Positions 366 to 34,079 of a DNA stretch of 55,539 nucleotides are shown here, piece by piece; positions within the stretch are counted from its first letter, which is position 1, and each line of letters starts with the position of its first letter. Source of the stretch: Nemertoderma westbladi (lineage: Eukaryota; Animalia; Xenacoelomorpha). Where the stretch lies: assembly GCA_032718475.1 (NCBI GenBank), contig JAUCBJ010008838.1:1-55539 (forward strand), in the 5' to 3' direction. The notes under the pieces are model-generated. The model was not told where the DNA came from, searched no databases, and saw nothing but the letters and a program-made list of their open reading frames with translations. A program made the translations under genes and the position numbers.

Positions 366-3185
366 ATGTCTGATACTAAGCAGAACTTGTCAGACAGTTT
401 ATTAGATGTAACTATCTGCGACTCAGATAGAGGTGTAGAACCATCTAGTCGTAAGTTCAGTTCACCTCCCACTGTGAGGAAGGTCATCCCTCCAGTAATA
501 ATAAAAGAACCTAGGCTGGTCCAACATCGTAGGTCTATCATAGGCACTCGAGCTCAGGTCAAGCGGGACCAAGAAGCAGCAGAACAGCAACAACCCGCGA
601 GTCAAGAACTTATTACTCAGCGGCCCAGCAGCTCCAGTAGTGAGGATACTGTAGAGCTGACACCCGAGCGCGGAGCAGAGATGACGGATGCGGTTTATAC
701 GGATCCCCTTCTCATCCTTCCTGCAGCCGTACTCACTAGGTTATTGATCACGGTGGAAGAACACCAGATCGATTGGGCGAGAAGTCAACAATCAACTAGA
801 GATAGTTATGCGGGATACACGAGGGAAGAACTGAAGTCTATTGTCGAGTCGCAATGGAACTTCCCCGGACCCGGACTCCCGTTTGATTTATCAGAAGCTG
901 CCTGGGAAGACATACACCGGATGGGAGTAGCCAAGGAAACCATCGATCCAGCTGTATGGAAGAGGTCCGCAGCCGGATACGCACAAGGATTCTTCAGCTC
1001 TATGGAGCGAGTAGAAAAACAACTGTTACAACAACCTCAAGGACCTCAAGAGCAGGGACAACTGCTTTATCAAGTTAGAGAAAGAATTCTGCGAATTAGG
1101 CTAATCTTATCAGCCTTTGAGGAGGCTTCTAAAAGAAGACAAGACACGTCGTTGCAAGTTGCCGTAAAGACTTGGTTTCAACGAGTGAATCGCCAGGTTC
1201 AAGGAGCAGCTCAGTGGAAAGCTCAGTTGGAGGCGCGCTCAACCCATGGAGAATCAACGGACGCTACTTTTTCCCAAGTGGAAAGTGAAGCGACGGCAGA
1301 GAAACCGCATAAGAAGGATGCCATTGACATCTATCTGTCAGACTATCAGCGTTTTTTGGGAGATGAAGAGTTGAGGAGAAGGCTAGATGGACTTAGCCCT
1401 AATAGTGAGGGGGCCCAGCGTGTGTTGGATGCAATAGATGTAGATAGGTTAGCGGCGAACCAAGCTAAATTCGATGAACAACTCCGCATCGCTAGAAAAA
1501 AGGAAGAACAAGTAAAGAAAAAACGTATAGAAGATAGAAAGACAGCAGCAGCGGCAGTGGCAGCGGCAGAAGCGGATAGAAAAGCGGCAGAGGCAGCGGC
1601 CGAGGCAAAAGCGGCAGCGGCAGAGGCAGAGGCAAAGGCGGCAGTGGCAGAGGCAAAGGCGGCAGCTGCGGCCGAAGCGGAAAGAAAAATAGCAGTAGCA
1701 GAAGCAGAACGGAGGGCGGCTGAAGAAACCATCCAATTAGAATTGGAAAACATTCAGGAGAATCAAGACTGCATAAATAAACAGTTAACAGCTAGTAATA
1801 TGCAGATGATGAATCGATCTACTCCCAAAAGACAGGGATATACATCATCTGAGGAAGGCGATACCACCGATACTGAAGGCAAAGGAAATAGATCTCGTCT
1901 AAGCAGACGTAAAAGAACATTCCACCGTCAGAAATTGCCTGATTTGCCTCCAGCTGTTAGAAGACAACTAAATAGCACCAACTTAGGCAGTACAGAACCC
2001 ACAGACCAAATAATTAAAATAGAAAGACTCCCTACTATAGTAGATGAGCCTGAAATAATTAGGCCTGTTTTCGAAATCACCCCTTCGGTGATAGACACAC
2101 CTGTACTCCCTGAAGTTACCTCTAAATTCCCTCTGCATAGCACTAAGCTACCTGTGCCCCGTAGAACTGCCCAGGAGACAGTTCAGGTCCTGGACCCCGA
2201 GCGAAAGATTCATAATTTGTCGCCCATTGTCCCTCGTCCGCCCGCTACAACGTTGGCGACTCCCGCTTCGGCGGTCGAATGGGTGGACGAGAGACGGCGG
2301 GGAATGGATCTCCTGCTCGGGCAGATGCAGGAGACTGTTCGACAATTTAAGGGCACAGTAAGGGAAAGTAGACTAGAGTTGCAAGAAGTGCAGCAAAGTA
2401 TCGCGCTAGAGCGCGATAAATTAGTGAACACACAAAGGGGTATATCACCACCCCCTGTAACAATGTGTCAACCTGTTAGGTCTGAAGTAACACATGCGCA
2501 AGGTGTGGAGCCTACACGCATTTATACTGCTAGCGAAGTAGAAACTCCTATAGTGAACCCTATTAAGGGTAATTATAAACCTGTTGATAATGATATTCCC
2601 TATAGACCGGATCATAATCCGAGAAATTTATATACCGATAACTCGATATTAAATAACACGATGGCCCAAGAAAGTTTTACGCGTCAAATGGCTAGAACCG
2701 AAGCCCGGCAAGCGGTGAAGGTGGGAGAGATAGTCAAATTCAATGGAGATGAGATGAAATGGTTACCTTTTAATGAATATTACAAAGATAACATACAGAA
2801 CTCTGTATTGTCTAATGGAGAGAAACTTAGATTCCTCATCGAGTGCTTGGAAGGATCTCCCAAGTTAATGGCGTTAAAGTTTATTGGACATCCAGACGGA
2901 TTAAGACAAGTTTGGGACACACTAAACATCAGGTATGGTAATAGGAATAACATCGCTAAGTATTTATATGCAAAATTAGTAGCGCCCAGAAAGTTCATCA
3001 GCAGTGGGATAATAGAGTTTTCCGATGAGATTCAAGAGATCTGTAGACAATTAGATTGGTTAGGTAAGTCTCATGAATACCAAAGTTCTATGGTCATTGG
3101 AGCTGTGGCTTCTACTTTACCGAAAGGTGGGGTAGGCACACGCTGGGATAAGAAAGTACTATATATGATGGAACAACAACGATGA
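366..3185 (+). CDS. gag: BEL/Pao Gag N-terminal part (coiled coil with AEAKAAA repeats, DUF1759-like capsid region)
   Basis: 939-aa ORF; KFNGDEMKWLPF...EKLRFLIECLEG...LNIRYG matches the BEL Gag core pattern. Same frame as 3195-3392 and 3396-8468. Confidence 0.85.
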   Translation: MSDTKQNLSDSLLDVTICDSDRGVEPSSRKFSSPPTVRKVIPPVIIKEPRLVQHRRSIIGTRAQVKRDQEAAEQQQPASQELITQRPSSSSSEDTVELTPERGAEMTDAVYTDPLLILPAAVLTRLLITVEEHQIDWARSQQSTRDSYAGYTREELKSIVESQWNFPGPGLPFDLSEAAWEDIHRMGVAKETIDPAVWKRSAAGYAQGFFSSMERVEKQLLQQPQGPQEQGQLLYQVRERILRIRLILSAFEEASKRRQDTSLQVAVKTWFQRVNRQVQGAAQWKAQLEARSTHGESTDATFSQVESEATAEKPHKKDAIDIYLSDYQRFLGDEELRRRLDGLSPNSEGAQRVLDAIDVDRLAANQAKFDEQLRIARKKEEQVKKKRIEDRKTAAAAVAAAEADRKAAEAAAEAKAAAAEAEAKAAVAEAKAAAAAEAERKIAVAEAERRAAEETIQLELENIQENQDCINKQLTASNMQMMNRSTPKRQGYTSSEEGDTTDTEGKGNRSRLSRRKRTFHRQKLPDLPPAVRRQLNSTNLGSTEPTDQIIKIERLPTIVDEPEIIRPVFEITPSVIDTPVLPEVTSKFPLHSTKLPVPRRTAQETVQVLDPERKIHNLSPIVPRPPATTLATPASAVEWVDERRRGMDLLLGQMQETVRQFKGTVRESRLELQEVQQSIALERDKLVNTQRGISPPPVTMCQPVRSEVTHAQGVEPTRIYTASEVETPIVNPIKGNYKPVDNDIPYRPDHNPRNLYTDNSILNNTMAQESFTRQMARTEARQAVKVGEIVKFNGDEMKWLPFNEYYKDNIQNSVLSNGEKLRFLIECLEGSPKLMALKFIGHPDGLRQVWDTLNIRYGNRNNIAKYLYAKLVAPRKFISSGIIEFSDEIQEICRQLDWLGKSHEYQSSMVIGAVASTLPKGGVGTRWDKKVLYMMEQQR

Positions 3186-6100
3186 GACCCTACCATGGCA
3201 GATCTCATGTCATTCCTGGATGGAGAAGTGAAATTGCAACTCCTCAAGCAATCCAGAGAGAAGACACCGGAAAACAAGGTAAGTGAAAAACCCGTCTCTA
3301 GGAGAAAGGTAACACCAGTGTGTTATACAGACGACGGCGAAAGCCAGACTTCTCAAGGAGAAGATAGCGGGAAGGACACCGATCGATCTTAATACGTGAA
3401 TAAAATGCCTAAAGATCAGGTGAGTAAATTCAAGTCTCGAACAAATGACAGGAGAGAACAGGTAAGAAAAACTCCTCCTACGTCTCCCAAGAGAATTCAG
3501 GTGAGAAAGCCCGAAGACAAAGCAAGTGTACACAATGTGACTCAGAATAAAGTAAGTAACATCAAACCGAAATGTGCGCTATGCGACGGGACCCACCGTT
3601 TGAATATGTGTGATGAATTCCTGAAGAAATCATTAACTGAGAGACGTGAAGTCATGTGGGATAAGCGGTTATGTTATAATTGCCTCAGACAAGGACACCA
3701 ACGGCGTACCTGTTTCTCTGACATAAGGTGTGCAAAGTGTGGTGTGAAACATCATATCTTGTTGCACGCTGAATTCGAGCGAAATACTCCGAATCAGGTA
3801 AGTGATTCCGAACTACATGTCCAATTCAGTGATGTGAACGACACTGACCAATCTGAGATGGAAGGATTCTATACGGATGAGTTCTCCGACGAAAACGAAT
3901 CCTGTTACCTGATAAATACCGCAGTGTATCGAGCACTCACATATGAAAAAGATACAGACAGCGACCTCACTCTAACTACTTCTGAACGACAACCGTCTTG
4001 GAAAGAGCCATCTTCCAATGTAGGGATTAGAGAATTTCCTGTGGTACAGGTAAGGGTTCACGGACCTAAACGGAGTTACGTAGTGAACGCCCTCCTTGAC
4101 TCCGGTAGTACAGGAACATTCATCGACCAAGAGCTAGCCGAAGACATATTTGCTGGACAACCCAAGTTCCGAACTACGCTAAACATGTCAGGCATTATGC
4201 AAGTCTGGAAATCCACAATAACAGCGGATTATTATGTAGGAGCGTTGTCCACCCCCCAGGACGAACTAGGAGAACATAGCATCAGGTCAGTGAAAATGGT
4301 GGCTATAAAGAACTTCGCTACTACTCAAGCAGACCTTTATAATTGGGACGAGGATGAGAGCATCCAACATCTTAACATACCTCGATTGCAGACTGATTAT
4401 CCTGGAGTGCAAATACTCATCGGCCAAAACGCGCATGAGGCGCTGGAGACATTAGAGAAACGACCTACTCAACCGCAGCCACTACAGACCTATGCGGTAA
4501 GAACTAGAGTAGGTTGGTACTTTACTGGACCTTCCCGTAGAACACTCAGAGAAAGACTACCGCAAGAGCGAGTTTGCCAGGTGAGTGAATGGGAAGATGA
4601 TACTAGTGAAGGAGACGATTTAACTGAGGGAACTCCATACTCCTCAGATGACGACGACATTCACCAGCTTTTTGACGAGGAGAATACTATCGATCTCCTT
4701 AAGGAAAACGAGGCTTGGCAAAACCAAGTGAACTTATGTCAACTTCTTTATCCATCTGAACGAGAAGCTTATAACGACGAGTTAAATGACGTCATTGAGC
4801 GTTGTAATGCCAAGACTCGAGATGAACATGCTGTACGATTCTTTACGCAAGAGGCAGTAGAGCCCAATTCCTACGATAAGGCCTTATCAGTGGAAGAGGA
4901 AAGGGCCAAGCAGATCCAAGAGACTACTACACGTTTCATCAAAGATCAAGGTAGGTATGAAGTCGGTTTACCTTTTCGCAAGAAAGAACCGAAGTTCATC
5001 AATAACAGACCTTTGGCGGAAAAAAGAATCGCGCAACTCCATCGACGCCTTACGGCTAATTCTTCAGCTAAAGCAATGTATCAAACACAGCTGGAAAAAT
5101 TTATTAATAAGGGATACGCGGAGAGGGTACCGGAAGAAACACCTGTGACTGAAAGAACGTATTACTTAACTCACCATTACGTTCCTAAACCCGGTAAACC
5201 CCATGAAGTGAGAGTAGTGTTTGATGGCTCCGCTCTTTACATGGGTCAATCCCTTAACTCTGAATTGTTACCCGGACCCAACTTACTTCAATCTTTGTTG
5301 GGAATTCTTTTAAGATTGAGACAATATTCGATTGCTTTCGCCTCCGATATAGAAGGCATGTTCTTGCAAGTCAAAGTGTTGGATAGGGATCGAGATAGCT
5401 TACGATTTCTATGGTGGCCCGAAGGAGACCTCAACCAGAAACCGGTGGAGTACTGGATGACCATCCAGGCCTTTGGGATAATCTCAAGCCCTTCCAACGC
5501 CTGTTCGGTAGTGCGTACCACTGCAGAGGACAACCGAGAGGCCTTCTCTAAGGAAGTGATCGACAACATCAAGAGGGACATATACATGGACGACAATCTG
5601 AAGTCCCTTCCATCAGTTGAAGAAGCCATTGAGGTCGCTAAAGGAACGGTAGAGTGCTTAAAAAGAGGTGGGTTTCGATTAACGAAATTCACCAGCAACT
5701 CCCGTGAGTTTCTGGAGTCGATCCCTGCGGAGGATCGAGGAGCGAAAGATCTCGATTTGATCAAAGATGATCTGCCAGAAACCAAGACACTCGGCTTGAA
5801 ATGGGACACAGAGAGAGATATCCTGTTTTTCCAACTAAAACAGCGAGATAATCCAGTTCGAACCAAACGGATTTGTTTAAGTATACTGAGCACTTATTTC
5901 GATCCATTGGGATTTATTAGCCCAGTTATATTGATTGCTCGTAGTTTGGTACAACAAATGTGGCTTGAAAACCACTCATGGGACGATCCACTTAAGGGAG
6001 AATTATTAAAGAAGTGGATGAAATGGGAAGATTCTCTACCGGCTATCGAGGATTTTATAATTTCCCGTTCATATTTTGGTCATGTTCTCCCTACGTATTC

Positions 6101-8468
6101 CTATCAACTCCATGTGTTTGGAGACGCCAGCGATATGGGAATAGGTATAGTAGCCTACCTAAGAGTGGAAACTCCGGATGGAATCAAAGTCGCCTTGGTT
6201 ACTTCTAAGGCATTAATCAACAACAAGTTGAAAGTTCCTCGAGCGGAGTTAAAGGCGGCTCTATACGCTACAGCCATCGGCCGGAATGTAACAGAACAGA
6301 TTGACTATCCATTAGAGAAAACTGTCTATTGGACCGACGCTTTACTCGTGTTAGAGTATATAACCAATGAAGTCTGTCAGTTCAGCGTCTTCGTTACCAA
6401 CAGGGTAGCCATCATACTTAGTCGCACGACGATGGACCAATGGAGACATTGCCCCGGAACGATTAATCCAGCAGACATCGCTTCCCGAGGAGCGACTCCA
6501 AAGGAATTGGTAAATACTCCCGAATGGTTAGGAGGACCCGACTTTCTCTACCAAGAAGAAGAAGAATGGCCTCCCCACCTCACAACAGCAGAGATCAGAC
6601 AGGCCAAGGGAGCGGAGAAAGTTAAACCCAAAACTCGAGCGAGTAAATCGAAGTTGTTTAAACCTGCGGTTGATCTATCTGTATTATTTACTTCCGGAGC
6701 GGATGCTTTAGATCAGAAACCCACCGCCACGACCAAAGAAGTCTTGGAAATCCGTGACAAGGATTGGAAATCTGGAATACCAGATATCGCGCAAGGACTC
6801 TCACCTCTCTTGCAGAGAGCGATACGTCACTACAGCTCCTGGAATCGGCTCTGTAAAGCTGTCACTTATTTGAAACGATGTTTTCATCATCGTTACTCCG
6901 GGACAAAGACCAATAGTGATGATGCCCCATCAGCATCTGCACGAGTCCATGTTGTTAAAGATCTTCCTACATACAAGATACCCGACAGGTTTCTAAAGGA
7001 AAAGATCAGTTACCAGGAGCATGATGAAACCAACAAACAGATGCTGAGACTCCTACAATGTTATGAGGATTCCGATAAGTATTTCCTGTTGTTAAGAAAT
7101 CCGCAGATGCGCTTAAGGGATCGCTTCTCTAGTACCATGATAGATGGGTTAATACGTGTTGGGGGTCGGCTAACAAACGCCCCATTATCCTTTGACACTA
7201 AGTTTCCCATACTTATTAGAAATCTTGACATACAAATCAAGATAATTGTAGATGTTCATAGCAAACTGTACCATGCTGGTAGAGAACGAGTTCTGAGCGA
7301 AATTCGAACTCGCTACTATTTTTATAAACCCCGTAGGGCTCTGAACCAAGTTCTTAGGAACTGCATACCCTGTAGGAAAGCATTCAGTAGGCCTTTAACA
7401 CAGCGAGAGGCAGAATTACCTAGGGAAAGAGTAAGCTTCTATGAACCACCCTTTACTAATACCGGTGTGGATTTATTTGGCCCTATTGAAGTATATCGTG
7501 CCCGGACTATAGTCAAGAGATGGTGTGTCATCTTCGTTTGTATGACTTGTAGAGCTATCCATCTCGATATGGTAAACGATCTATCCACCAACAGCTTCGT
7601 GTTGAGTTTACGACGACAGATCGCTCGCTTCGGAACCAGTAACACGATGAGATCGGATAAGGGAACGAACTTCATTGGCGCCAACAACGAAATACAAGCT
7701 TACGTGAAGGACTGGAACAAAAGACAGGTGGACGATCAGCTAAAGATAACAGCGTCTAGCTGGACCTTCAACGCCGCCGACGCCCCTTGGTGGGGAGGAA
7801 GTTGGGAGAGATTGATTAGGAGCGTGAAGACTGCGTTCCACTTTATTGTGCCTTGTCGCGCTTATCTCACCGACGAATTATTGCGGACGTTAATGGAGGA
7901 AATCGCCGCCTATCTCAACGAAAGACCGCTTATGCCAGTCTCTTCAAATCCTGATTCCCTGGAAGCGCTAACACCCGCGCACTTTCTACTGAAGAAGCCC
8001 GTAGCCATGCTCCCACGATCGGAGATCACAGACGGAGACGAGTACTGTCGTCGAACCTGGCAACTTATGCAGTTGCTATCCCGTCGTTTCGCTGACCATT
8101 TCGAGAAACATTACCTGCCCACTCTACAACTTCGAACTAAGTGGTTTGCGCAGCAAGAAAACGTCAGCGCTGGAGACATGGTGCTTATTGTGGACCCCGA
8201 TCTCCCACGTAAGCGATGGCAAACAGGACGTATCATCGAGACTTATATCTCGAGCGATGGTTTGGTGAGATCAGTAGAGCTCGTCGTCATGCGGCGGAAC
8301 TTTAAGAAACCAGGGATAGTCTTTGAGACTCAACAGCTCAATCGCCCAGTGGGTCGTTTATGTTTACTGGAAAGAGACAGAGAGCTCTCCGGAAACTATG
8401 GAAGGCAAGAAACTCTTCCCACGACCACTTCCCTAATCCAACCGACATCTAGGGACTCCCCAACTTAA
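3186..8468 (+). CDS. pol: BEL/Pao Gag C-terminus plus Pol (3 zinc knuckles, aspartic protease, RT, RNase H, integrase); TAA at 3390-3392 interrupts the frame
   Basis: CALCDGTH..C, CYNCLRQGH..C, CAKCGVKHH..LH; LLDSGS protease; YMDD RT; LHVFGDAS RNase H; H-H-CIPC, GVDLFGP, SDKGTNF and WGGSWERL integrase. Confidence 0.95.
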
Positions 8469-8992
8469 TATCGTTCGGAGTGGGCGTGTGACTCTATTAT
8501 TTTATATTATTTTATTATTTTTATATTTATGTATGTATTACTATGTAATTTTATTATAATCGTTTTATTTAATTTAGTAGAATATTATTTAGCGATTATT
8601 TAGTAGAATAGTGCAATATATTCGTGTTTATTACGTACGTAATTACTTATATTATATTTAGTGCGACGGCGAAGAAATAATTATTTTTTCTCTTTCCTTA
8701 CTGTCCGTATTATATTATAAATACGTAACTACAGTAAGATGAAATGTCTGTACTTATTAAAGTACAATAAAGCCACTACTATATTCAAGTATTATTGGTA
8801 GGCAGAGTATTAGGAATGCAAAGTTCAGATCCTCGTGTCTCGGCTAAACCAAGCTCTGGGTAGACCTTGGAAACGACTTGCCTCTTCACACTGACATTGC
8901 TTCGTGCGATATTGCTCTCATACCGTATATTAAATAATACATATAGTAGCGTGATGTCCCTTTAACAGTAGCGTATAACGCAAAATAAATCT

Positions 8993-9304
8993 GTTAAACC
9001 CTTTGACCATCTGTAATTCTAGTCGATTAAGATATCGTGGCACCCACCGATATACTTGAAAGACAAATTATAGAATCAGTGGTTAACGTCCCCAGACAAG
9101 TTCTGGAATAAATCGGTGCCCATCTCAAATATTAATTAGTTAATATTTACAAATCAAATAAGTCAAAATCTGTAAAATTCAGATCCTTCAACAATTCTAG
9201 TCAATTAAGATATCGTAGCATTTACCGATATTCTTAAAGAGACAATTTTCTTAGAATTAAGGATCTTGTGTCCCCAGACATGTTCTAGAATCAAAATATG
9301 TCTA
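8993..9304 (+). ncRNA. Tandem pair of putative structured RNA motifs (stem-loop with possible pseudoknot) in the pol-ORF3 spacer
   Basis: Two ~125-nt related units (8993-9120, 9181-9304) share AATTCTAGTC.ATTAAGATATCGT...CCGATAT and GTCCCCAGACA.GTTCT; their outer stems differ in sequence but both pair. Confidence 0.55.
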
Positions 9305-9927
9305 TTTAATTATCAAATAATAAAATTTCAGGGAATAAATTTAAATTCATGTCTTTTAATGAATTTAATAAATTGCCATTTTACGCAATTTATAACATTC
9401 CCAAAATTCCATTAATTAATAGATCAAGGGAGCGGAGATTTATATTATTATGCGTATGCGTGTACGAAAGTCTCCCAAACATAGTCAATAGCCGATAAAA
9501 TTCATAAAGTCATGTATAAAACAGGACATTGACTATTAAAGAATTACTATTAAATAACATCCCAGATCTGTATGCATTGGAATTACCCTAATTCTACCGC
9601 TAGCTTTACATAATGTCACCATAGCAACAACCACGCTAGAATTAGAATTGAGTTAAAAGAACAATAGAAAGCTTGTCCCATTGAATAGCATAGGGAATAA
9701 ATAGCGCACTGCTAGTATCCAAGGATACATAACAATACAGTGACATTCTGGAAGGCATTGACTAACGGACAAATGGCCCGAATGTGTGTAGTTGTGACAA
9801 GTTGTGTGGTATTTGTGAGTTTATAGGTGAATGTTACTGCTAAAGTGTGTTTACAGTAGCTAGTCGCAATCGTAAAAGTAACCTAACTCTCCAAGGAAAA
9901 CCTGAAGTACATCTAAGCCTTTGGGAC

Positions 9928-10072
9928 GGACAGTGGAGTGACTTGTGCCGGTTATCGTTGTCGTTGTACAGCTACGTCGTTGGCGAAAGTACAGCTACAG
10001 CGGTACATCGGCGCTGAGAATCTCCTACTGTCCGGGGGCAAGGGAGAAATAGGCAGCGACGCCCGCTCGCCT
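9928..10072 (+). ncRNA. Conserved multi-stem cis RNA structure just upstream of ORF3
   Basis: GGACAGTGGAG (9928-9938) pairs with CTCCTACTGTCC (10022-10033), enclosing a long hairpin 9947-10012. Compensatory changes occur in the copy at 55369-55474. Confidence 0.7.
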
Positions 10073-10119
10073 AACGATATATAAACTCATTATAATATTG
10101 GTGAACTCGTATAGCAGAT

Positions 10120-13100
10120 ATGACTGAATTAATAGAAGATGATCTTGGTATCAGGGAGAGATATACTCTACCTTTACAAGCGTTTGTCGATAGCTTGATA
10201 CGCGGCGACGCTGATCCAACTACTACGGAGGACGATGGTCGTTATATCGAACCGCCAATGTCCCAGGAGCAACTTACGCGTGAATTGGATTATAGAAAGT
10301 TCACGGCTCGCTATACGCATCGTAATGGTACGTATATGGACTTCTTGACTACTGGTCACCCTATTGATTTACACGATACGGACGATGTAGACACCGAAAG
10401 GGAAATGGTTTTATTTAAATATCATACCCAGCGGAGTCGAAACGATAAATCGAGAATAGAACACGAGAACTCTATTCGAAACAAACTCGAAAGAGAAGAC
10501 GTTGAAGAACCTGATAAACGTAACGGTTTCAACGATTATCTAGAATTCTTACGAGAGACCTATCTCAATGTTGCCAGTCAACAAAATCTCGAAACTCGAT
10601 ATCCTCAAGGTATACATCCAGATCCTATAATGGAACTCAAACGGCTCTATTTTATGATGATGTATCTTACCGCCGATCGACCGCTACCTGTCGTTCCAGA
10701 TAGCTTCGAACAGATGGAGGAATATTGTAAAACTGGAGAGCGATCACCCGCGTTTCCCCTTCAAGACGTGCGTCTTTGGTATTACTGTGACGAATGCCCT
10801 AGACCTAACCAGCAAATCGAAAGGCATAAACATCCTCGGAGACGTTGCGCTAAACACAGTTTTACGCGATATACTTATGGGAGTTTCGAGCGTAACCTTT
10901 TCGACGTATCACCTACGGTCGCGCGCCTTAAGCGATCATTGAATAAACCCATGATCAGAGTTCCGGAATACTCGGTCAGACCTCCCCATTCACAAGTGAT
11001 ACCTCAAACTCTAGACCCTAATAGTATTACGGATCCTCCCGAACTGTACTCACTGTTCAAAGATCTAGTGTTACCTGAACATTTGATTGGTGGCACTCCG
11101 GTAGTGGGTTCGTTGGATATTCGCCAACCTTACCTCGCTGGACTAGGACGCGGTCATCTAATATCACCGTTTAACCCCAACAACCGTCCTGGCCTTCCCC
11201 CGATCCAACCTGTTACAGAAGTCGAAGAGAGCGTGATACGAAATGCATTGGACGCTATTCGGCAGAAAATCGGAAAAGGAACTTACGATTGCTTGGAGAA
11301 ACGTAAATTGCAACAACAAGTCCAAGCGGTGAAAGAACTAGCTTTACCCCAGTTCGATAGAGAAATACAAAATCTAGAGGAGGACATCGAACGTGGACGA
11401 ACCTACTCTTTACAGGAATTCCTGGACGAGCGCTTGCAACAACAAGCGGAGGAAAATCAGCTCGAGGAAAGACATATAGAGCTGACTGAGAGGGAAGAAG
11501 CAGCTTTAGCTCAACCAGAAGCTCAAATTCTCGTGACGGATCTCTATTCCAAAACGATCCTCCACCCCTCGATGGTTCCTCAGTTTAAAGACAAGCTCTT
11601 TGCTACGGTACAACCTCAACCGGTTAATACTGATCTCAGATCTCACGAGCTTGTTGCTGACGCTCCCATGCTACAACGTCCACCCGTCGAGGCCGCTCGT
11701 GTAGATGGTTTACTTGTTGAGCCTCCGGACAATAGAGCGGATCTTGTCCGTCACATGGTGCACAATGTTAACATACGCGCTAGACCTTTACCGGACTCAT
11801 TTTATGGAATTAAGGATCACCCTTATTACGTCAATTTGAAGCAATATTACATGATGAAACCGGAAGATCCTACGCATAGTCTGAGGTTCCTACCATTAAT
11901 TAATCCTCTCGATCTTGTCGAACTCGAACAACTACAAAAACACCTAGATCAGCTAGTTAAACTAAACTCATTTCGAAAACCGTATAATATTTCTAGAATA
12001 GAGAAAGAAATATCACCTCCGTACAATCTTGATGGATTCATTAAAACTCGATTAGTGCACTGGAATCTTGACGTGTTATTAGAGGAAGAAAGAATAAAAC
12101 GATATGGAGATGTGGAAACCTATACTACACAATGCTTAAAGTATAGAGATCTACCCAATGCTAACGAGTGCGCTACTTTGTGGCATCCAGTGGGAATGAC
12201 TCTCGAAAACGCCACTAAAGAATGGAACGAGACTCTTAACGTTATCGAGATGTATGGCGTTGTTACTTATGACAACGAAGGTAGCGTTCCGGTGGGAGAA
12301 CTAGGAACTACGCGAATGATACATATACGAGGACTCGCTGGTTCTACCCACGTATTCACTCGAGCGTGTTCCGACGTGATTGATTATTCTTTTGAAACTC
12401 TTACAGAGATACAAAAGAAACTTCGACATGGACAATTCGAGCTCGCGCAGCGTTACGTCACCGACACCGAGCGCAAACCGGCCATGGGTATCGATGGATC
12501 AATGTTACCCCAACCTGTACTCGAAATGTTGTTTAACGAAAGAATTCTAAAAATCGGCTCAGCTGTTTATGGAGATCTCCAAAACGACTTCCGGAATATG
12601 GAGAACATTCCATACCCTTTCGTTGATACTCAGCTGATTGCTCCTTGGGCCGAAGGCCGAGGTTTCTTTCGCACTATGTATGCTAATACACCCAGCGGCA
12701 TTACTAAAGTACAACGGACATCCATCGGACATCTTGCCTTTCAAGAATATGGTTGGAATTTCAAAGTTGGAAATCCTATCAATTACCAGCAAGTATATGG
12801 AGATCATTACTCTCGTTTATATTTTGATGGACCGTTAACTGCGCCTGGTGCCGTATATAGCTTTATGAGTGTTCCACTTCGTCCTTCCTTAGCTATATAC
12901 ACGATCTTTGAAAACGCAGCACTTGCCGGTTGGCTAGCCGATGTGTGCAGTCGTACCATACGCGCTCACCCATTAATACTTGGGACTAAACTCGCCAAGT
13001 TAGACGAACACAATAAGTTTATATGTTTCGAATGTTTCCGGCGCTTTCTGACTCCGTTTCGTAACGTCGATAGTCAGTTCAAGGACCGCGCGCTGACCAA

Positions 13101-14373
13101 ACTCAGTCTGAGAGACTCAGCTGCGGAGAAACTGAGTAGCGCTGGATTTGCCGTTTTTCAAGATATTTGTATACAGAACTTACATTCATCTGTTATACAA
13201 AGACCTCGAATACCTACAGGATATTCTGTCGTGGAAATACAGACAGTGGGTCCACTTACGGAAACAGACGCACCCACTTCGTCTATGCAGCTGGAGGATG
13301 AGCCAGTATGCTTGGAATCAGAAGCGATTCAGCCCACAGCTTCCCGGAGCAGTGACAATAATTATGTTATAGAGTGGTATCAAGGTCCACAACGTCTCAC
13401 AGCGTACGATTATCGACACGCCAACTACGTTTCTCGAAAACGTTGTCGATTATGTGCATCGAGAGACCACTTCACCCCTCTCGACTCCAACGCACCTTGC
13501 TCCTATTTCCTCGAACAACCGATGATGGAAATATATTGTGCTTATTGCAGACTTAATAACTCTCATATTTTTGCCGTCTGCCCACAATTTATGACTCAAT
13601 GTCACTACTGTCAACTTAAAGGACATGAAAGTTACAATTGTCCCTTTAATCGCGATTTAGAGAGCGTAGACGAGATGATCACCCTGCGATACATCCGAGC
13701 TTGGGAAGCGAATGCGGATTTACATTGCGAATCCCGACATCGCTACTACCCTGGACGAGCTTACGAGGGAGTTTATGCGTTCCATCCTTACCTATTCGCG
13801 TCGATTGAACAGAAAACACGCGTACCAAGTTACGAGTTAATGAAGCGTGTTGGTGAGTGTATTTCCACCAAGTTTGTCAGAAAATACCTTAGAAACGTCA
13901 ACCCTAATGATATAACCACCTATCACCTGATCAATTTTATACGTCAGGACCCTGAGTATGGCGACATCTTTGTAAACTCGCATCCTGAACTACAGGAAAT
14001 ATCTCGGCGACCATATGAATATCGAACCCGAGAACGCGAGCTGGAGAGAACCATTAAACCGAAAAAGTTCCTCACCACTCACGGTCCACCCACCGCTAGT
14101 GTCCAGACGACCCGTCAAGGACCCGTGGGAGCTGCTGTCCTGAGACGCACTCTAAAGGCCGTTAGACCTCGCTCCACTGAGGTTGATATTAATCAACCAG
14201 GTACTTCGACCGGCGGGTATACCGATCGTAATCCTACACCTTCTGATGCAATCGTATTGCACCCTTCGCCTAGGAGCTACAGCCCTCCTCATAAAGTGGC
14301 TCGCCCCAAAGAGAAAAGGACTCTTGCGAGCCTCAAGAAACTGCGTAAACGCCGTCCGCGCAAGAAAGACTAA
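10120..14373 (+). CDS. Element-encoded accessory protein ORF3: DEDDy (WRN/EXD/Mut-7-like) 3'-5' exonuclease domain, CCHC zinc-knuckle array, basic C-terminal tail
   Basis: Intact 1417-aa ORF inside the element. VVTYDNEG (ExoI), LPQPVLEMLFNERILKIGSAVYGD (ExoII), FVDTQ, SIGHLA, PLRPSLAIYTIFE (ExoIII-like); CRLC..H, CAYC..H..C, CHYC..GH..C; ends KKLRKRRPRKKD. Confidence 0.8.
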   Translation: MTELIEDDLGIRERYTLPLQAFVDSLIRGDADPTTTEDDGRYIEPPMSQEQLTRELDYRKFTARYTHRNGTYMDFLTTGHPIDLHDTDDVDTEREMVLFKYHTQRSRNDKSRIEHENSIRNKLEREDVEEPDKRNGFNDYLEFLRETYLNVASQQNLETRYPQGIHPDPIMELKRLYFMMMYLTADRPLPVVPDSFEQMEEYCKTGERSPAFPLQDVRLWYYCDECPRPNQQIERHKHPRRRCAKHSFTRYTYGSFERNLFDVSPTVARLKRSLNKPMIRVPEYSVRPPHSQVIPQTLDPNSITDPPELYSLFKDLVLPEHLIGGTPVVGSLDIRQPYLAGLGRGHLISPFNPNNRPGLPPIQPVTEVEESVIRNALDAIRQKIGKGTYDCLEKRKLQQQVQAVKELALPQFDREIQNLEEDIERGRTYSLQEFLDERLQQQAEENQLEERHIELTEREEAALAQPEAQILVTDLYSKTILHPSMVPQFKDKLFATVQPQPVNTDLRSHELVADAPMLQRPPVEAARVDGLLVEPPDNRADLVRHMVHNVNIRARPLPDSFYGIKDHPYYVNLKQYYMMKPEDPTHSLRFLPLINPLDLVELEQLQKHLDQLVKLNSFRKPYNISRIEKEISPPYNLDGFIKTRLVHWNLDVLLEEERIKRYGDVETYTTQCLKYRDLPNANECATLWHPVGMTLENATKEWNETLNVIEMYGVVTYDNEGSVPVGELGTTRMIHIRGLAGSTHVFTRACSDVIDYSFETLTEIQKKLRHGQFELAQRYVTDTERKPAMGIDGSMLPQPVLEMLFNERILKIGSAVYGDLQNDFRNMENIPYPFVDTQLIAPWAEGRGFFRTMYANTPSGITKVQRTSIGHLAFQEYGWNFKVGNPINYQQVYGDHYSRLYFDGPLTAPGAVYSFMSVPLRPSLAIYTIFENAALAGWLADVCSRTIRAHPLILGTKLAKLDEHNKFICFECFRRFLTPFRNVDSQFKDRALTKLSLRDSAAEKLSSAGFAVFQDICIQNLHSSVIQRPRIPTGYSVVEIQTVGPLTETDAPTSSMQLEDEPVCLESEAIQPTASRSSDNNYVIEWYQGPQRLTAYDYRHANYVSRKRCRLCASRDHFTPLDSNAPCSYFLEQPMMEIYCAYCRLNNSHIFAVCPQFMTQCHYCQLKGHESYNCPFNRDLESVDEMITLRYIRAWEANADLHCESRHRYYPGRAYEGVYAFHPYLFASIEQKTRVPSYELMKRVGECISTKFVRKYLRNVNPNDITTYHLINFIRQDPEYGDIFVNSHPELQEISRRPYEYRTRERELERTIKPKKFLTTHGPPTASVQTTRQGPVGAAVLRRTLKAVRPRSTEVDINQPGTSTGGYTDRNPTPSDAIVLHPSPRSYSPPHKVARPKEKRTLASLKKLRKRRPRKKD

Positions 14374-14443: not shown

Positions 14444-14451
14444 GGGAGCGG
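14444..14451 (+). promoter_or_regulatory. Polypurine tract of element 1
   Basis: GGGAGCGG immediately before the TGT LTR start; GGAGCGG also precedes the LTRs of elements 2 and 3. Confidence 0.8.
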
Positions 14452-15654
14452 TGTAAAAGCTTTTGTGGGATAACTGGTTCGTTTGCTTTGCTGGCCAGTT
14501 CCCCCCCGGTCGCTAGAATACTCAAAAAGGGATCTATAGTTAAAATAGTGCAAGCTACCAGCTTATTGGCTGATTTGCTGTACGCAGGTATCTGGGCTCT
14601 GTTTAATCGGCCAACCAGCCTAAGAGGGTTGCGTCATAGCCCTGTTTTTGTATCTCCCAATAGAATTTGAGTTAGCCTTGATTTTGACCTATCACAGAGC
14701 TACTGAACTGAATTTTTCCTATCTCACTGCTCTTTCTCTGTGTTGAACAAGAGCTTCGTGGAATAAGTGTAGTTGGTATTCTCGTATAGAGTAGTAGTCA
14801 CGAGTTTTTCAAAGCCACGAAAGAACGGCTTTGTAGTGTTTTGTGCTTTTCTGCTTTTTAGCCCAACACTAGTAGGTTTAATTATAGGGACATATATCCT
14901 TTAACAAACTGTGAATATCACTCTACAAACAACTGATCAAACTGCAAATTGCAAACTCATAACAATCAGTGTTCAGTTGTTGTTTTATACTGCTATTTAC
15001 TGTCAGTTCTTCATAATATGGTTGATGAATTATTATATTTGGAATAACGATAAATAACCCCGAAACCCAATATTCTTGATATACCGAAGGTAAGAGAGAA
15101 AGGTTACAGATAAACGATTGTGACTTATGTTAAAGTGGTTTGAAGTGAATCGAATGTTATTTGATAGACCCTACATGAGTCAGTCTGTGTTCCTTTTATA
15201 TGTGACTAAAATCAGTGAAGATCGGCAGATTAGTGTGCAATATTGTGCAGCATTGTGTATGAGTGAGTCTGTTAAAGAAGCATTTCCTAAAGAATGCGCC
15301 ATATATGTGAATTATAACTAAACCATATCGTCGTGAGTAGTTTAAGTCATAACTCTGCTTATATAGATAGAGCGCCACGTCCTAAAGGAACTGTTAATAT
15401 TCCCCGAAGGTGAATAATATTGTCAGAGATTATATAATACTGTCAGTCGAATAATACATTAGGCTTACATAGCAATAAGATTAAGCCGTCGAACCCAATC
15501 TCCCGGGTATAACCAGCGGGTGAATGATCGCGCACAGATTGGTTTCGACTAGTGTAGTGAATCAAATACTTGTCGTAGGCTAAAAGGCGATTTAATATCT
15601 AGAAGACATCCTAATTTGGCGGGTTAAACTGCCAAAGGTCTGAAAGCGCGAACA
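14452..15654 (+). repeat. 3' LTR of element 1 (~1.2 kb, TGT...ACA)
   Basis: Starts TGTAAAAGC and ends GCGCGAACA; homology with 52782-54013 (-) stops at this ACA. Confidence 0.9.
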
Positions 15655-16316: not shown

Positions 16317-16585
16317 ATTTATATAAATTGGATTGAAGGCAATTGGAGTGTAGGAGTGTAGGCAGGTTAGTAAATTAAATTAAAATGACTAAGGAACCAA
16401 TATACTAAATGATTAAATAATTAGAGATACTGGAGCTTTAATTTTATGGTGACGGTGAGGGTTGGTTCTTCTATAAGAGGGTAAATAGAACATCAGTATG
16501 TACGCACATATAAAAATAGTTATTTATTACGTAGATAATAAAGTATTACTTTGTCACTATTATCATTGTATTTTATGAAGCTATA

Positions 16586-16837
16586 GGACAATTCCGACCC
16601 GGACAATTCCGACCCGGACTATTCCGACGCGGACAATTCCGACCCGGACAATTCCAACCCGGACAATTCCGACCCGGACTATTCCGACACGGACAATTCC
16701 GACCCGGACAACTCCGACCCGGACTATTCCGACCCGGACAATTCCGACCCGGACTATTCCAACCCGGACAATTCCGACCCGGACTATTCTGACCCGAACA
16801 ATTGTCCAGGTCGGAATTGTCCGGGTCGGAATTGTCC
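16586..16837. repeat. 15-bp tandem array (GGACAATTCCGACCC) ending in 2-3 inverted units
   Basis: About 14 direct units, then ATTGTCCAGGTCGGAATTGTCCGGGTCGGAATTGTCC. Confidence 0.9.
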
Positions 16838-17047
16838 AGATACATATAAATAAAAATAATTAATATAAATCACCGGTAGGCCTAATCAATAACAAAACTG
16901 TGTTCTGAGAACGCTAATATTTTTCTTAATTGATAGCTAATTATTATTTTAGGAAACGAGGTGAAACCTCATAAGGCTATCCCTCCATTTTAATCTAATA
17001 TTGCACATTTTCTACTTGTTTTTTATTTAATTTTTCTGTTTTATTGG

Positions 17048-17149: not shown

Positions 17150-17931
17150 CTGTACGTATGTGATACTACTTTTTAAACTGTAGCTACGTAACTGATATAT
17201 TTTAAACTGTAAAGTTAATTTTATTTCAAGTAAATGCGAAATACCATATGTATAATACATATATATTAATCAATTGTAGTAGGCCTATCCTAAATAACAA
17301 CTTGGAAATCGTTTTAAACTACAGTATTAATCTTTGTTATAATGATGTCAACTCAATCTTTGCATATTTTTAAATACTTTCACTTTGCCCTTTTCTGGTT
17401 TGTATCTGATAATTATCTTTTAACAAAAGTATATACTGATAATTCGTTTTAAACTAATTACCACAATACGTATCAATCCAACCTTTTCAACTCGATCGTT
17501 TTAAACTATTAATCTCTAGTATAACGAGGTCGATAGAAACTAATTTTTGGACCCTCATGGAAACGAGACAGGCACCCCATGAGGCTATCCATAAACTGTA
17601 ACACAATATCTCGACAATTGTATACTTGTATACAATTGTATAATTATTATACAATTGTACAATTGTATACTTTATTATACTTAGTTTAGCACCGTAAATT
17701 AATTTATCTGTTTTATTATTTAATACTTTTATTAATATACTGTACTTTTTTCGACATACTGTATATTCTTCTACTGTACTTTGAAATCATATCGATGCTT
17801 ATGTAATTACCTTCCTTTATGTATATATTTTATTCAAAGTTTGTCTTTGTAAATATGCCACACCATAACTATTGAGCGACCACCTGATATATCGTAATTG
17901 TCTTACTGTGTCATACAGTATATTTATTTAA

Positions 17932-18645
17932 ATTGTATGTGTCTTTTTTACTTTGTATGTGTCTTTTTTACATTGTATGTGTCTTTTTTACATTGTATGT
18001 GTCTTTTTTACATTGTATGTGTTTTTTTACATTGTATGTGTCTTTTTTACATTGTATGTGTCTTTTTTACATTGTATGTGTCTTTTTTACATTGTATGTG
18101 TCTTTTTTACATTGTATGTGTCTTTTTTACATTGTATGTGTCTTTTATACATTGTATGTGTCTTTTTTACATTGTATGTGTCTTTTTTACATTGTATGTG
18201 TCTTTTTTACATTGTATGTGTCTTTTTTACATTGTATGTGTTTTTTTTACATTGTATGTGTCTTTTTTACATTGTATGTGTCTTTTTTACATTGTATGTG
18301 TCTTTTTAACATGATGTGTCTTTTTTACATTGTATGTGTCTTTTTAACATTGTATGTGTCTTTTTTACATTGTATGTGTCTTTTTAACATTGTATGTGTC
18401 TTTTTTACATTGTATGTGTCTTTTTTACATTGTACTGTATGTGTCTTTTTTACATTGTATGTGTCTTTTTTACATTGTATGTGTCTTTTTTACATTGTAT
18501 GTGTCTTTTTTACATTGTATGTGTCTTTTTAACATTATGTGTCTTTTTTACATTGTATGTGTCTTTTTAACATTATGTGTCTTTTTTACATTGTATGTGT
18601 CTTTTTAACATTGTATGTGTCTTTTTTACTTTGTATGTGTCTTTT
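17932..18645. repeat. 20-bp minisatellite (CATTGTATGTGTCTTTTTTA), roughly 35 units
   Basis: Read directly; it explains the spurious ORFs at 17898-18608. Confidence 0.95.
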
Positions 18646-18897
18646 ATTAATGTTGCCGTAAACTTTGTACGTTACTTAGTGATAAAAAAATCAATCAATC
18701 AATACCATATACACGTGATTTATTGTAAACTACTGTACAGAGTTACACCATTTATGTTACCTGAGGCAAGTCAATTTTATTATATAATTTTAAACATGTA
18801 TTATCCTGCCGTCCATTAATTTACTGATTTACAGTAATTGGACAGCCCGATTTACTTAAAACAATGTAAAATAAATTACCGGTAAATTAGGATTCGC

Positions 18898-20173: not shown

Positions 20174-21990
20174 GAATGAATGAATAATTCGTTTTATTTC
20201 CTGTACATAATGAAGGAATGTAAATAGGAAAATTACCGTTAATCACAAACACAGATTACATAAAAATAAATAAAATATCATTGCATGAAAATCGGTATCT
20301 CATTGTTTATTAGATATCTAATAGCACTTGGAGCGAAAGAGTTTTGAAACATCTTGGTCCGTGTATCAGGCATTCTGTAATTATTGCGAGTTGCGGTGGA
20401 GTTTGATCGGCAACCAATAATGAAAGCGTGTAGAGGATGACTCGGCGTGTCCACAATCTTCTTTACCATGTTGGTGAACTGTTTGGAAAACGCATCATTT
20501 ATAATGTTCATGTAAACTTGTTTTTCAATTTTTGAGTGTTTGGCAAACAGCGACAGTGGCCTCTTTAACTTCTTTTTGAGATTCTTTGGAATGAGGGGGA
20601 CCCACGCAACCGCACAGTACATATATTGGGGTACAATGTAAGTTTCAAAGAGAAATATTTTTGTATCTTTATTTGCAAACCGGATGAAAAAACTGAATTG
20701 GCGAACTATGTAATTTACCCTTTTTATAAGTTTAAATATATGAGTTTTCCATGATAGATTATTTGCAATCCATATTCCAAGATGTTTCACTTCGGACGGA
20801 CGCGGAACCTCGTCACCATCTATGTAGATTATTTCTTCTGCGATATCTAGAACTTTCTGTTCTTTAAAGTTCATTGGAATGAAACATAGTTCTTCAGATT
20901 TCTTTGCGTTTATCTTTAAGTTTTTTCCATGTGATAGCTCAACAATTCGCTGTATGTTAGACTTATATTTGTCATTTTCTGCGGAATGCCTTATCGCCTG
21001 TAGATTTCTTGAGTCATCAGAATATTTTGCTAGGGATCCATCGTCAGCTCGAATTTCATCAGTGTCTTTGGTAAACAAAGGTCCACTAAGAGGACCCCCT
21101 TGGGGAAAACCAACTTTCAGTGAAATAGAGGAAGATATGTTTTTTCCAGATTTAACCGATTGAGAGAAACCACTCATGTATGAGTGAAGCCAGCTGGCCA
21201 ACCAACGCATCTCTATTGGTAATTCGTCTAAAAGTCTGTTTAAAAACTTGTTTTGTAACACTGTGTTAAAAGCAGATGAGTAGTCTATGAATAAACATTT
21301 TACAATTGTGTGTCTTTCATCTAACGCTTTTGTAATCTGATGAAGGAGGTATAAGATCGCATCAGCTGTAGAATAACCTTTTTTGTATGCAAATTGAAAA
21401 ATATCATCAGTGGATTTACTTGCATTACGAAATATATCTAGAGCCAATCTGTCTAAACACCTAGAACTCAAAGGAGTAACACATACTGGTCTGAAGCTGG
21501 TTTTTTCAGAAAATGATGAATCACATCTTTTAGGTAAGGCAGATGTCAAAGACGAATTCCAACATTGCGGGTATTTTTGTTGATGGAAACTATCTCTGAA
21601 TAGTGAAGCATAAGGTATAGAAAGTTCTTTTGCAAAGGTTTTATAGCAAATTGCAGAAACAATGCTACTACCTTGGGCTGTATTCGGTTTCAATTTACGT
21701 ATTAATTTCTCAACCACAATCGGATCAACATGAATATCATTATCATAGGTGGTACCATTATATATAGGCTCATCCTTATTCACATCCTCGTTAAATCTAG
21801 TGAAGAAATTATTAAGACTCTCGACTTCATTTTCATCAAATTTATGAACTTGGTGTTTTTTCCTTATACAGGTATCAGATAGTTTGTACAGTTGAGTTTT
21901 TGGCATATTGGTGAATTCCATTTGCCGTTTATCAAAGATCAGTTTGTTGATTTTTCTCTGGCACTCATTTCTCTTAACATTATTCAAGGC
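20174..21990 (-). mobile_element. 5'-truncated Rex1/Babar-like LINE (RT ORF within 20278-22056)
   Basis: FQFAY, LFIDYSSAFNTV, PQGGPLS and KYSDD motifs; AATAAA followed by an (ATTC)n tail at 20174-20198. Confidence 0.8.
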
Positions 21991-23229
21991 AGCTACGCAG
22001 CTGTGGCAGGCTACAATCTCTAACAGTTTGATTGAATACAATTTTGTTGTATGCAATTGTTTGCATGCAAATTAATAACAATCAAAACGTATATCATGAA
22101 TTGAATTTTTTATATAATGACCAGACAGGAACAAATAATTAAATAAACAGCAAAATCAAAGTAAAATATCACAGAATAAGTAAACAACAAATATATGGCA
22201 CATTACGTAAATGGTTTTGATATTTCGGTTAAAGTTAATCACAGACTTAAAAATAATATGTTTGTGACGTAATAATAAGTGACAACAACGTAATGAATTG
22301 CATCAATTAGAATACTTTGAGTTAATATTATTCACTAGATTTATAGATCTGATTTGTAGTCTATATAAAATAATGTGCATATAGTGGGTTTAATAAATAA
22401 TACCTCACAACAATGTTAAAAGGAGCTGGTTACAGTTGGCTACAGTGGCACATTATTATATCCTACCGGTAAACAAAAAAAACAGGTTACAGATTTATTT
22501 CTTGGGGGGAGTAATCATTACTTATTTGAATCGATATCTCCCTGGAGAGGGATGATTTTGATAGCATCGCAAATCCTCCCTAGGCCTATCTGACAAATCA
22601 TATTTAAAAAATTAAATGTTAATTATAATTATAGCTGAATGAGCTTCATTTATTTAACTGTAAAAATAAATCAATAGGCCTAGGCCCTACAAAAGTACAG
22701 TCTAAAAACTGAAACAATAAATAGTTTGTAATAACAGTTAACAATGTGAAGTTTTTAAATCGAAATCGAATCGAAATAGTTTTGTAGTAATGATGTCCCT
22801 GTGCCCTGCCCCTTCAACTGCAAACTGGGACCTCCCAATAATAAGAATTCCAATATTTAGTCCTCGGCTGTTGAAATCCACCATCAGTACAGACAAATAA
22901 GTCGATCCTCCACCTGTCAGTGCTGGTTAAGGGGACTTCCTGGTCCTGGCAGACCTTAATTCTGTAATTGGTACCGGTAGGTCTAATGCAGTAATGTATA
23001 AGCTACTGTACAGTGCAGTAGGCCTGCAGTACTACTGCACTACAGTAATAGAGAAATAGGCCTTGCAGTACAGCAGTATAATTATTATTTTATTATTATC
23101 AACACTCAGACCATGGTAAAATAAACATTCATGCAATAAACATAATAAATTATGCATGCACTAAATTATAAGTAATTATAAAAGGCGGAGAAGACAGCTT
23201 TTAACTGCACTTATGGGGGCCATATTTAC

Positions 23230-28948: not shown

Positions 28949-29045
28949 GGCACTAGTATGTTATAGGTACACCCCCCCTCAAATTTTTTTTACTAGCTAG
29001 TTTTTGCCATTTATTTTTATGAACATGTTCTAGAACATGTTAGAG
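28949..29045. mobile_element. Left-end (TIR) copy of the MITE family at 32763-33640
   Basis: GGCACTAGTATGTTATAGGTACACCCCCCCTCAAATTTTT... is the inverse of 33548-33640; no matching target duplication found. Confidence 0.6.
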
Positions 29046-33699: not shown

Positions 33700-34079
33700 C
33701 ATCTATCCCATCATAGTAGACATGTACCGAACAACAAGTGAGTCCCACAAGAAATGAAAACAAATAAGTTGGTGCCAGTTCCCAAGAAGGGCAACCTAAC
33801 ACTCTATGGTTCTTTTCGGGGAATCTCATTGGTCTCGATTGCTGCAAAGCTATACAATAGGATTCTATTAAATCGCATCAGGGATCCCATTGAGAGACTG
33901 CTCCGTGGAAATCAGAATGGGTTCCGTAAAGGTCGTGGGACCATGGAGCCCATTTTGGCACTTAGAAGGATAATTGAAGAGTTATCAAAAAAGAAAGAAA
34001 GGCATCTGGCTGTTATCTTTGTTGACTACTTCAAGGCCTTTGATTCAGTCTCTCGCTCACTTATGTTCAGCATACTTTC
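33700..34079 (+). pseudogene. RTE-clade RT fragment cut by the element 2 LTR
   Basis: PVPKKGNL..FRGISL..QNGFR..DYFKAFDSV; similarity ends at the TGTTAAAC LTR terminus. Confidence 0.85.

Follow-up and report, generated by a model that had tools for sequence, protein, structure and literature searches.

A BEL/Pao retrotransposon of Nemertoderma westbladi with a likely DEDDy-like exonuclease gene in the env position

What use has a retrotransposon for a third gene that resembles a nuclease and not an envelope? The question is raised by contig JAUCBJ010008838.1 of the xenacoelomorph Nemertoderma westbladi (assembly GCA_032718475.1), whose 55,539 nucleotides are the window analyzed here; coordinates refer to the + strand, and features on the opposite strand are marked (-). 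The window begins inside a long terminal repeat (LTR) retrotransposon of the BEL/Pao type, which carries a third open reading frame, ORF3 (10120-14373, 1417 amino acids, aa), between pol and the polypurine tract (PPT) and 3' LTR, in the env position. An earlier reading made from the letters alone (the sequence-only reading) had taken this frame for a DEDDy-type 3'-5' exonuclease gene with zinc knuckles. We hold with good confidence the joint claim that this is a BEL/Pao element with a DEDDy-like ORF3, and we weigh below what the protein may do.

ORF3 is intact and open throughout, as the sequence-only reading had stated, and 1.65 kb separate it from the pol stop. Its N-terminal ~680 aa (10120-12160) belong to an unknown family without a Pfam match and contain a Cys/His cluster at aa 223-246. 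This part is followed by the likely DEDDy-like 3'-5' exonuclease (12259-12924), by three Cys/His knuckles and a further motif (13444-13788), and by a basic C-terminal tail (14320-14373) that is a candidate nuclear localisation signal; Lys and Arg make up 25% of aa 1330-1417. Pfam gave no match at E <= 10 to ORF3, whole or in parts, and the protein has no similarity to Gag or Pol. The absence of a signal peptide and of a transmembrane segment, also claimed earlier, agrees with a simple hydropathy test, no dedicated predictor having been run: the maximum over 19 residues is 1.19 and the N-terminus is acidic. Since no transmembrane segment is likely at this hydropathy, ORF3 is not Env-like; the Env candidate was rejected on the same ground together with the lack of a signal peptide, of fusogen likeness and of any Pfam match. 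A frame-overlap artefact was likewise rejected.

The exonuclease motifs quoted in the sequence-only reading all lie where it had put them: VVTYDNEG at aa 714-721 (12259-12282), which holds the ExoI residues D718 and E720; the ExoII residue D819 at 12574; FVDTQ at aa 834-838; SIGHLA at aa 868-873; and, in ExoIII, Y927 at 12898 and E931 at 12910. Four libraries, the ESM Atlas, NCBIfam, a PDB profile match and Pfam PF01612 (via the relative P0005, introduced below), give the same family for this region. In the ESM Atlas, aa 680-1040 retrieved PF01612 in 24 of 30 matches with a score of 0.92 and 163 shared features, to be read against a calibration in which 4-10 of 100 shuffled proteins attain 0.9 and most true members reach 170 features; aa 940-1300 gave no usable match there. 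NCBIfam returned only two matches at E <= 10, both RNase D models (E 0.0034 and 0.021) over aa 798-843, and BLAST aligned D819 on the ExoII Asp of RNase D and FVDTQ on its LIDTQ.

Distant relatives of ORF3 provided the alignment from which the catalytic positions can be judged. A search with aa 551-1300 against 1.84 billion representative proteins gave three matches (E 2e-7 to 5e-4), named here P0005, P0006 and P0007, of 575-648 aa. In each, an exonuclease-like N-terminal part, a linker, the knuckles and a C-terminal motif follow one another in the order of ORF3; they lack its long N-terminus. P0005 and P0007 share 26% and 23% identity with ORF3, and a profile built from these two only matches ORF3 at aa 778-906 (E 8e-16) and aa 1139-1176 (E 3e-8). 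P0005 itself matches PF01612 weakly (E 0.038). P0007 looks like a young repeat, because it has five near-identical members on contigs of 3.4-11.5 kb. The knuckle module of P0006 is present in two copies and its exonuclease-like N-terminus is degenerate, so P0006 was omitted from the exonuclease alignment. By these matches ORF3 is a member of an unnamed exonuclease-knuckle protein family. Word-index protein searches with ORF3 gave no relative at near length and none among shorter proteins, a protein search with the profile of ORF3, P0005 and P0007 returned its own two members only, and no relative was confirmed when loci were scanned in viral contigs (with pol as well), metagenome contigs and prokaryote genomes.

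In the alignment of ORF3, P0005 and P0007, D718, E720, D819 and Y927 do not vary, and the residue at 931 is Glu, Glu and Asp, respectively; 27 of 201 ungapped columns are invariant, as are 4 of the 20 columns that are acidic in ORF3. Thus the ExoI D-x-E after a hydrophobic strand is present and kept in all three sequences. The canonical Y-x3-D of ExoIII was not found, Y927 being kept with E931 in place of Asp, which bears out the replacement noticed earlier. Because ExoIII has Glu, we use the label DEDDy-like and not canonical DEDDy. Compared with eight bacterial RNase D and PolA exonuclease sequences, the three-sequence profile scored 38.3 (probability 70%, E 4e-5), while the highest score among 100 column-shuffled control profiles was 20.0. 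Its top two of three PDB matches were EXD2 (E 0.2) and Egalitarian (E 0.57). The EXD2 alignment places D819, Y927 and E931 on the catalytic residues D171, Y242 and D246, with the ExoIII part in a non-significant stretch and the EXD2 numbering offset taken from the 76-295 construct; the roles of these residues follow the part of the EXD2 study available to us (PMC6648332). ORF3 alone gave less: hhalign against the bacterial RNase D/PolA-exo profile reached a probability of 0.07, hmmsearch with the same profile gave a modest score, which 2 of 1000 shuffles exceeded, and the sole PDB match of the exonuclease region in phmmer was the unrelated EccB1 (E 0.34).

AlphaFold2 models of the region had predicted local distance difference test scores (pLDDT) of 30.8 from the single sequence and 33.7 from three sequences. 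On these models Foldseek found nothing at E <= 0.001, and the best VIA-align Z was 3.4, on one helix; both searches carry no weight because of the low pLDDT. The DEDDy type proposed earlier stands as RNase D/EXD-like by profiles and motifs; a DEDDy fold is likely from the profile and language-model matches. Taken together, aa ~690-950 of ORF3 are very probably DEDDy-like, of the RNase D/EXD type. We also lean towards an active nuclease, as four invariant catalytic positions and an Asp or Glu at the fifth would suggest.

The zinc knuckles of ORF3 (aa 1109-1174) were another feature of the sequence-only reading that held. The last has the canonical form C-x2-C-x4-H-x4-C, the motif behind them is common to all three distant relatives, and the top PDB match of a four-sequence knuckle profile was the HIV-1 nucleocapsid (E 5e-4).

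Gag (366-3185) is of the BEL/Pao type, with DUF1759 (E 4e-11), and is closed by an in-frame stop at 3183-3185. The same frame continues into pol (3186-8468) with triple Cys/His knuckles at 3573-3767, protease, reverse transcriptase (RT), RNase H, integrase and DUF5641. The pol order follows the order of motifs, the RT motif YMDD lies at 5583, and a Pfam profile search matched Peptidase_A17 (E 8e-36), DUF5641 (E 6e-19) and Integrase_H2C2, with Pao-specific profiles. These gag and pol domains bear out the BEL/Pao identity given in the sequence-only reading, and by them the host element is a BEL/Pao LTR retrotransposon. The expected 3' end is also present: the PPT GGGAGCGG (14444-14451) is identical in this and a second, decayed copy in the window, and the 3' LTR (14452-15654, 1203 bp, TG...CA), which contains neither AATAAA nor ATTAAA, has the same ends in the second copy. 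Read depth is at flank level past the LTR end; all four read runs cover the unit from position 1 to ~15,950, and depth beyond is 0-58. Since gag and pol share one frame that is broken by two stops (3183-3185 and 3390-3392), this copy is probably non-autonomous. The earlier length of more than 16.8 kb with both LTRs stands in part: the 3' LTR is seen, the 5' LTR lies outside the window, and the element would reach at least 16.9 kb if the 15,654 bases in the window and a further 1,203 are summed. Even without the 5' LTR, the 15,654 bases exceed the typical BEL/Pao length of 4.2-10 kb. In all four read runs a deletion joint (6622-8339) removes most of RNase H and integrase, and this further non-autonomous derivative is common.

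Between pol and ORF3 lies an AT-rich, non-coding, partly structured spacer (8490-10119), which has no similarity to the LTR and no Rfam match; spacer and ORF3 together measure 5.9 kb. No LTR copy was found between pol and ORF3, and on that ground an LTR element nested here with a separate 5' LTR was rejected. The junction of spacer and ORF3 recurs in the second copy and in a diverged contig of read run X5 (9841-10254). Directly after pol, a PPT-like motif followed by TGT (8477-8489) resembles both the PPT at 14444 and a motif at 41289 (-); it is likely an ancestral 3' PPT, a relic of the end before ORF3, or a central PPT. A contig ~13% diverged aligns as far as 8489, where the alignment also breaks at a repeat. 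We regard it as highly probable that ORF3 and gag-pol form one element, and the spacer, ORF3, PPT and LTR were likely added behind the ancestral PPT.

A long hairpin is predicted at 9927-10034, 85 nt 5' of the ORF3 ATG, and is kept in both window copies, with a folding z of -4.0 in copy 1 and -1.5 in copy 2. Eight of its 49 pairs vary, all of these remain paired and two are changed on both sides; this pairing was not significant in a shuffle control (135 of 500). The strongest folding windows of the 86 scanned, with 25 shuffles each, are in the spacer (z -7.1 at 9275 (-) and -4.3 at 8975 (+)), and a direct repeat of ~100 nt lies at 9015 and 9193, near the strongest folds (8975-9425). The stretch 10050-10119 contains a small hairpin that does not differ between the copies, a TATA-like sequence and, two bases 5' of the ORF3 ATG, TAGCAG; it may be an internal promoter or a splice acceptor.

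The decayed second copy (52782-55539 (-)) consists of the spacer end, ORF3, PPT and LTR. Its exonuclease and knuckles are deleted, 11480 being joined to 14221, and its unique 3' (U3) region differs: the copies share the PPT and the LTR end, and their alignment stops ~13 nt into the LTR, in U3. Over 356 codons the proportions of synonymous and non-synonymous differences were 0.47 and 0.15, giving a ratio of non-synonymous to synonymous rates (dN/dS) of 0.23 (p 8e-23); these codons come from the N-terminal part and the last 50 codons of ORF3, the exonuclease excluded, and seven further codons are stops in copy 2. The non-exonuclease parts of ORF3 are under purifying selection. Identity between the copies is 71-72% over most of ORF3, 85% in the spacer end and 88% in the 3' part of the LTR. 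This greater divergence of ORF3 suggests either that subfamilies have exchanged cassettes or that the non-coding parts are strongly constrained.

Read data were taken from four of ten runs, from two organisms, X1, X3 and X5 being among them. In X1 the summed depth, which is not equal to copy number, was 1.0-1.3 million in the spacer and ~1.1 million in the 3' part of the LTR; gag-pol stood at 0.4-1.1 million, the ORF3 core at 0.12-0.22 million and the flank at 58. The element family is very high-copy. Among the best 40 of 2437 read variants, 6 of 8 in ORF3 were synonymous, including all three in the exonuclease, and 18 of 27 in gag-pol, four non-coding rows and one stop row being dropped. None of the 12 listed indels (of 102) lay inside the open reading frames, in a list biased to high depth. 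Joints at 11477-14229 (X1 and X3) and 10494-13370 (X5) mark derivatives without the exonuclease, the former being the joint of copy 2; such derivatives recur. A lack of ORF3 in other family copies was among the outcomes that would have counted against the sequence-only reading, and it applies in part: exonuclease-deleted derivatives exist.

How might such a protein serve the element? Given the 1.65 kb between the pol stop and ORF3, the gene would be expressed from a separate message. Its nucleocapsid-type knuckles would bring the protein to RNA, the substrate that the knuckles and the kinship with RNase D and EXD suggest, and the DEDDy site would trim RNA 3' ends as a 3'-to-5' exoribonuclease. 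Acting in trans, the protein would blunt the host's small-RNA silencing of the element. Such trans action would allow exonuclease-less derivatives to spread, and since it permits the loss of the gene, these derivatives are compatible with ORF3 as an accessory gene. Nibbler and Mut-7 are DEDDy trimmers of small-RNA pathways. By analogy to them, counter-silencing as the job of ORF3 is overall a fair guess, if one that falls short of an even chance. The fuller reading is more tentative still: ORF3 would be a mobile exonuclease-knuckle cassette, swapped among animal retroelements, that trims or destroys guides of the PIWI-interacting RNA type in trans and is carried here by a BEL/Pao element longer than those described.

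Several observations weigh against this account. In the part of Rodriguez et al. (PMC5408684) available to us there is no clear link between DEDDy ORF3s and copy number. Regarding the domain itself, the 163 shared features of the Atlas match are below the 170 typical of most true members; the NCBIfam RNase D scores are far under the curated cut-offs, with Pfam giving none; the PDB E-values for EXD2 and Egalitarian are not significant; and the significant local alignments to known nucleases span the ExoII region alone. The ExoI register comes from the three-sequence alignment and is lost in the four-sequence one with P0006. ExoIII has Glu and not Asp, and in P0006 the ExoI Glu is lost, which means that dead members of the family exist. 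The dN/dS ratio covers only regions outside the exonuclease and carries no arms-race signal. With respect to linkage, no contig among those listed bridges pol to ORF3, the PPT-like motif and TGT after pol are at the usual BEL position, and spacer depth equals that of the LTR and exceeds that of gag-pol, the ORF3 core being ~4-fold lower.

The same observations can be read in other ways. It is most unlikely that the domain is no DEDD nuclease and resembles one in its motifs by chance, as the missing Pfam match and the weak E-values against known nucleases would allow: four libraries agree, the profile beats 100 of 100 shuffles, and conservation falls on the residues predicted to be catalytic. 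In an unlikely but more serious reading, ORF3 has the DEDD fold with little or no catalysis and, in the manner of EXD1, Maelstrom or Egalitarian, serves as an adaptor or decoy that binds structured element RNA, for example the spacer hairpins, for transport or protection. The Glu of ExoIII in ORF3 and P0005, the degenerate P0006, the second place of Egalitarian among the PDB matches and the hairpins in the spacer fit this, and EXD1 and Maelstrom are described as inactive RNA binders in the part of PMC5408684 at hand; it is opposed by the invariance of D718, E720, D819 and Y927 at 23-26% identity, where so few columns are invariant, and by the acidic fifth position. An active nuclease that is packaged with Gag-Pol and, during reverse transcription, trims the tRNA primer, the cDNA ends or the 3' end of the element RNA itself is quite unlikely in our judgement. 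The nucleocapsid-like knuckles could bind genomic RNA, 3'-end processing is proposed for the bdelloid DEDDy ORFs in passages of Rodriguez et al. (PMC5408684) and Arkhipova (PMC6431247), and EXD2 cuts both DNA and RNA according to the portion of PMC6648332 consulted; however, the BEL/Pao elements described replicate without any gene beyond gag and pol (PMC8742986), and ORF3 is a separate protein without Gag or Pol similarity.

The RT proofreader put forward in the sequence-only reading, which would permit a large genome as nidovirus ExoN does, has become very unlikely. An element of at least 16.9 kb (the length with the 5' LTR added) compares with 4.2-10 kb for Belpaoviridae (PMC8742986), and PolA, too, proofreads with a DEDDy domain; yet we rank proofreading low because spacer and ORF3 themselves supply 5.9 kb of the length. 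Moreover, the top matches are of the RNase D and EXD types, and Burro elements of 25-30 kb and Ogre elements of 16-25 kb appear without a named exonuclease in the passages of PMC6431247 that we used. That ORF3, PPT and LTR are instead a separate or loosely attached module, with the 3' end of the gag-pol element starting from the PPT-like motif at 8477 and its LTR, whole or as a remnant, in the spacer, seems improbable to about the same degree as the packaged nuclease. Its case consists of the PPT-like motif and TGT just after integrase, the similar depths of spacer and LTR, the absence among the listed contigs of one joining pol to ORF3, the position of the 5' LTR outside the window and the lack of AATAAA or ATTAAA in the LTR at 14452. 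Against it, no second LTR flanks ORF3 and the spacer end is joined to ORF3 in several diverged copies; among the 24 loose ends listed (of 2746), not one within the spacer marks a border to unrelated flanks, a weak test in that known LTR ends are equally unmarked.

The rest of the window is rich in other repeats. Downstream of the LTR there are tandem arrays at 16556-16840 and 17836-18670 with units of 15 and 20 nt, and an RT frame of a long interspersed nuclear element (LINE) at 20278-22071 (-). An uninterrupted frame of 733 aa (26009-28210 (+)) of the RING/B-box (TRIM-like) type, with an internal repeat of 27-33 nt, stands amid LINE fragments. At 28949-33640, a LINE RT frame (29853-32195) is flanked by two inverted repeats of 95 bp that are 95% alike; the whole may be a terminal inverted repeat element that contains a LINE. 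Another BEL/Pao element (34076-52781 (-)), unrelated to the first, has LTR copies at 50941-52781 and 34076-36538 that are 95-98% alike, a broken gag-pol (49654-42520) without an integrase match, and the PPT-like motif at 41289; a LINE (37059-40908 (+)) separates this motif from the part of the LTR that matches. At 52781/52782 the 5' LTR of this second BEL/Pao element is broken by the decayed ORF3 copy.

Juno and Vesta of bdelloids, the nearest counterparts by description, are Ty3/gypsy elements. In the part of Rodriguez et al. (2017, PMC5408684) covered here, RNase D-like DEDDy ORF3s are reported for these LTR elements and for the Athena/Terminon elements, with DEDD changed to DEED and activity undemonstrated. 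As in Juno and Vesta, so far as that part describes them, the ORF3 found here is a separate frame of the RNase D-like, DEDDy-like type that lies between pol and 3' LTR, lacks a transmembrane segment and has one Asp-to-Glu change. Unlike Juno and Vesta, which carry GPY/F and dUTPase in the same account, the host element here is BEL/Pao; and in contrast to the bdelloid DEED, a pattern taken from that paper's wording (PMC5408684, consulted in part), the fourth acid is changed, giving D-E-D-E. The 1417 aa with a ~680-aa N-terminus of unknown family and a knuckle module also set it apart from the bdelloid ORF3s, the likeness being one of description; bdelloid DEDDy ORFs were not among the named matches in the protein and profile searches with ORF3.

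Within BEL/Pao the contrast is larger. The profile of Belpaoviridae by the International Committee on Taxonomy of Viruses (PMC8742986) gives 4.2-10 kb and at most an env-like third gene, the extra genes are of the fusogen type only in the part of PMC13524379 used, and an upper bound of 15 kb is taken for full-length elements in the passages of PMC3118150 available. Env-carrying members include roo with an F-like Env, mosquito elements with a Chuviridae-like glycoprotein, and Tas (PMC8742986; PMC13524379, in part). Our element resembles them in having gag-pol and a third gene before PPT and 3' LTR. It differs in that this gene is nuclease-like, with no transmembrane segment, signal peptide or fusogen likeness, and in its length: with the 5' LTR added it would measure at least 16.9 kb, where 4.2-10 kb is the described range. 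With the cellular PF01612 nucleases (RNase D, EXD2, WRN-exo, Egalitarian, Nibbler/Mut-7) ORF3 shares the order and spacing of ExoI D-x-E, ExoII, DTQ and ExoIII Y-x3-acid, as well as the ExoII pattern LP..v..lL.d..ilK.G....D; unlike them, it has long insertions, Glu in ExoIII and a fusion to retroviral-type knuckles, reaches no family cut-off, and is carried by a transposon.

The sequence-only reading knew of no BEL lineage with this gene, and the literature search, which left out Repbase, Dfam, GyDB and most subscription papers, found no exonuclease gene in BEL/Pao either; outside BEL/Pao, the bdelloid DEDDy ORF3s are known (PMC5408684, in part). The passages of PMC3118150 and PMC8556966 considered mention no exonuclease, those of PMC6431247 mention DEDDy genes for Terminons only, and at 12 of the 13 places in PMC5408684 with the letters "bel" or "pao", those viewed, other words were found. 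What is new here is an exonuclease-like ORF3 in a BEL/Pao element, the Glu of ExoIII and the large N-terminus, whereas a DEDDy ORF3 as such was already known from bdelloids.

Described third genes of BEL/Pao elements are envelope-like; with a nuclease-like gene in this position, the DEDDy-ORF3 pattern of bdelloids reaches a further class of retrotransposons. This points to repeated recruitment of 3'-5' exonucleases by retroelements. The combination of an intact gene, a very high-copy family and natural exonuclease-less derivatives makes the question of an anti-silencing nuclease testable in animal retrotransposons.

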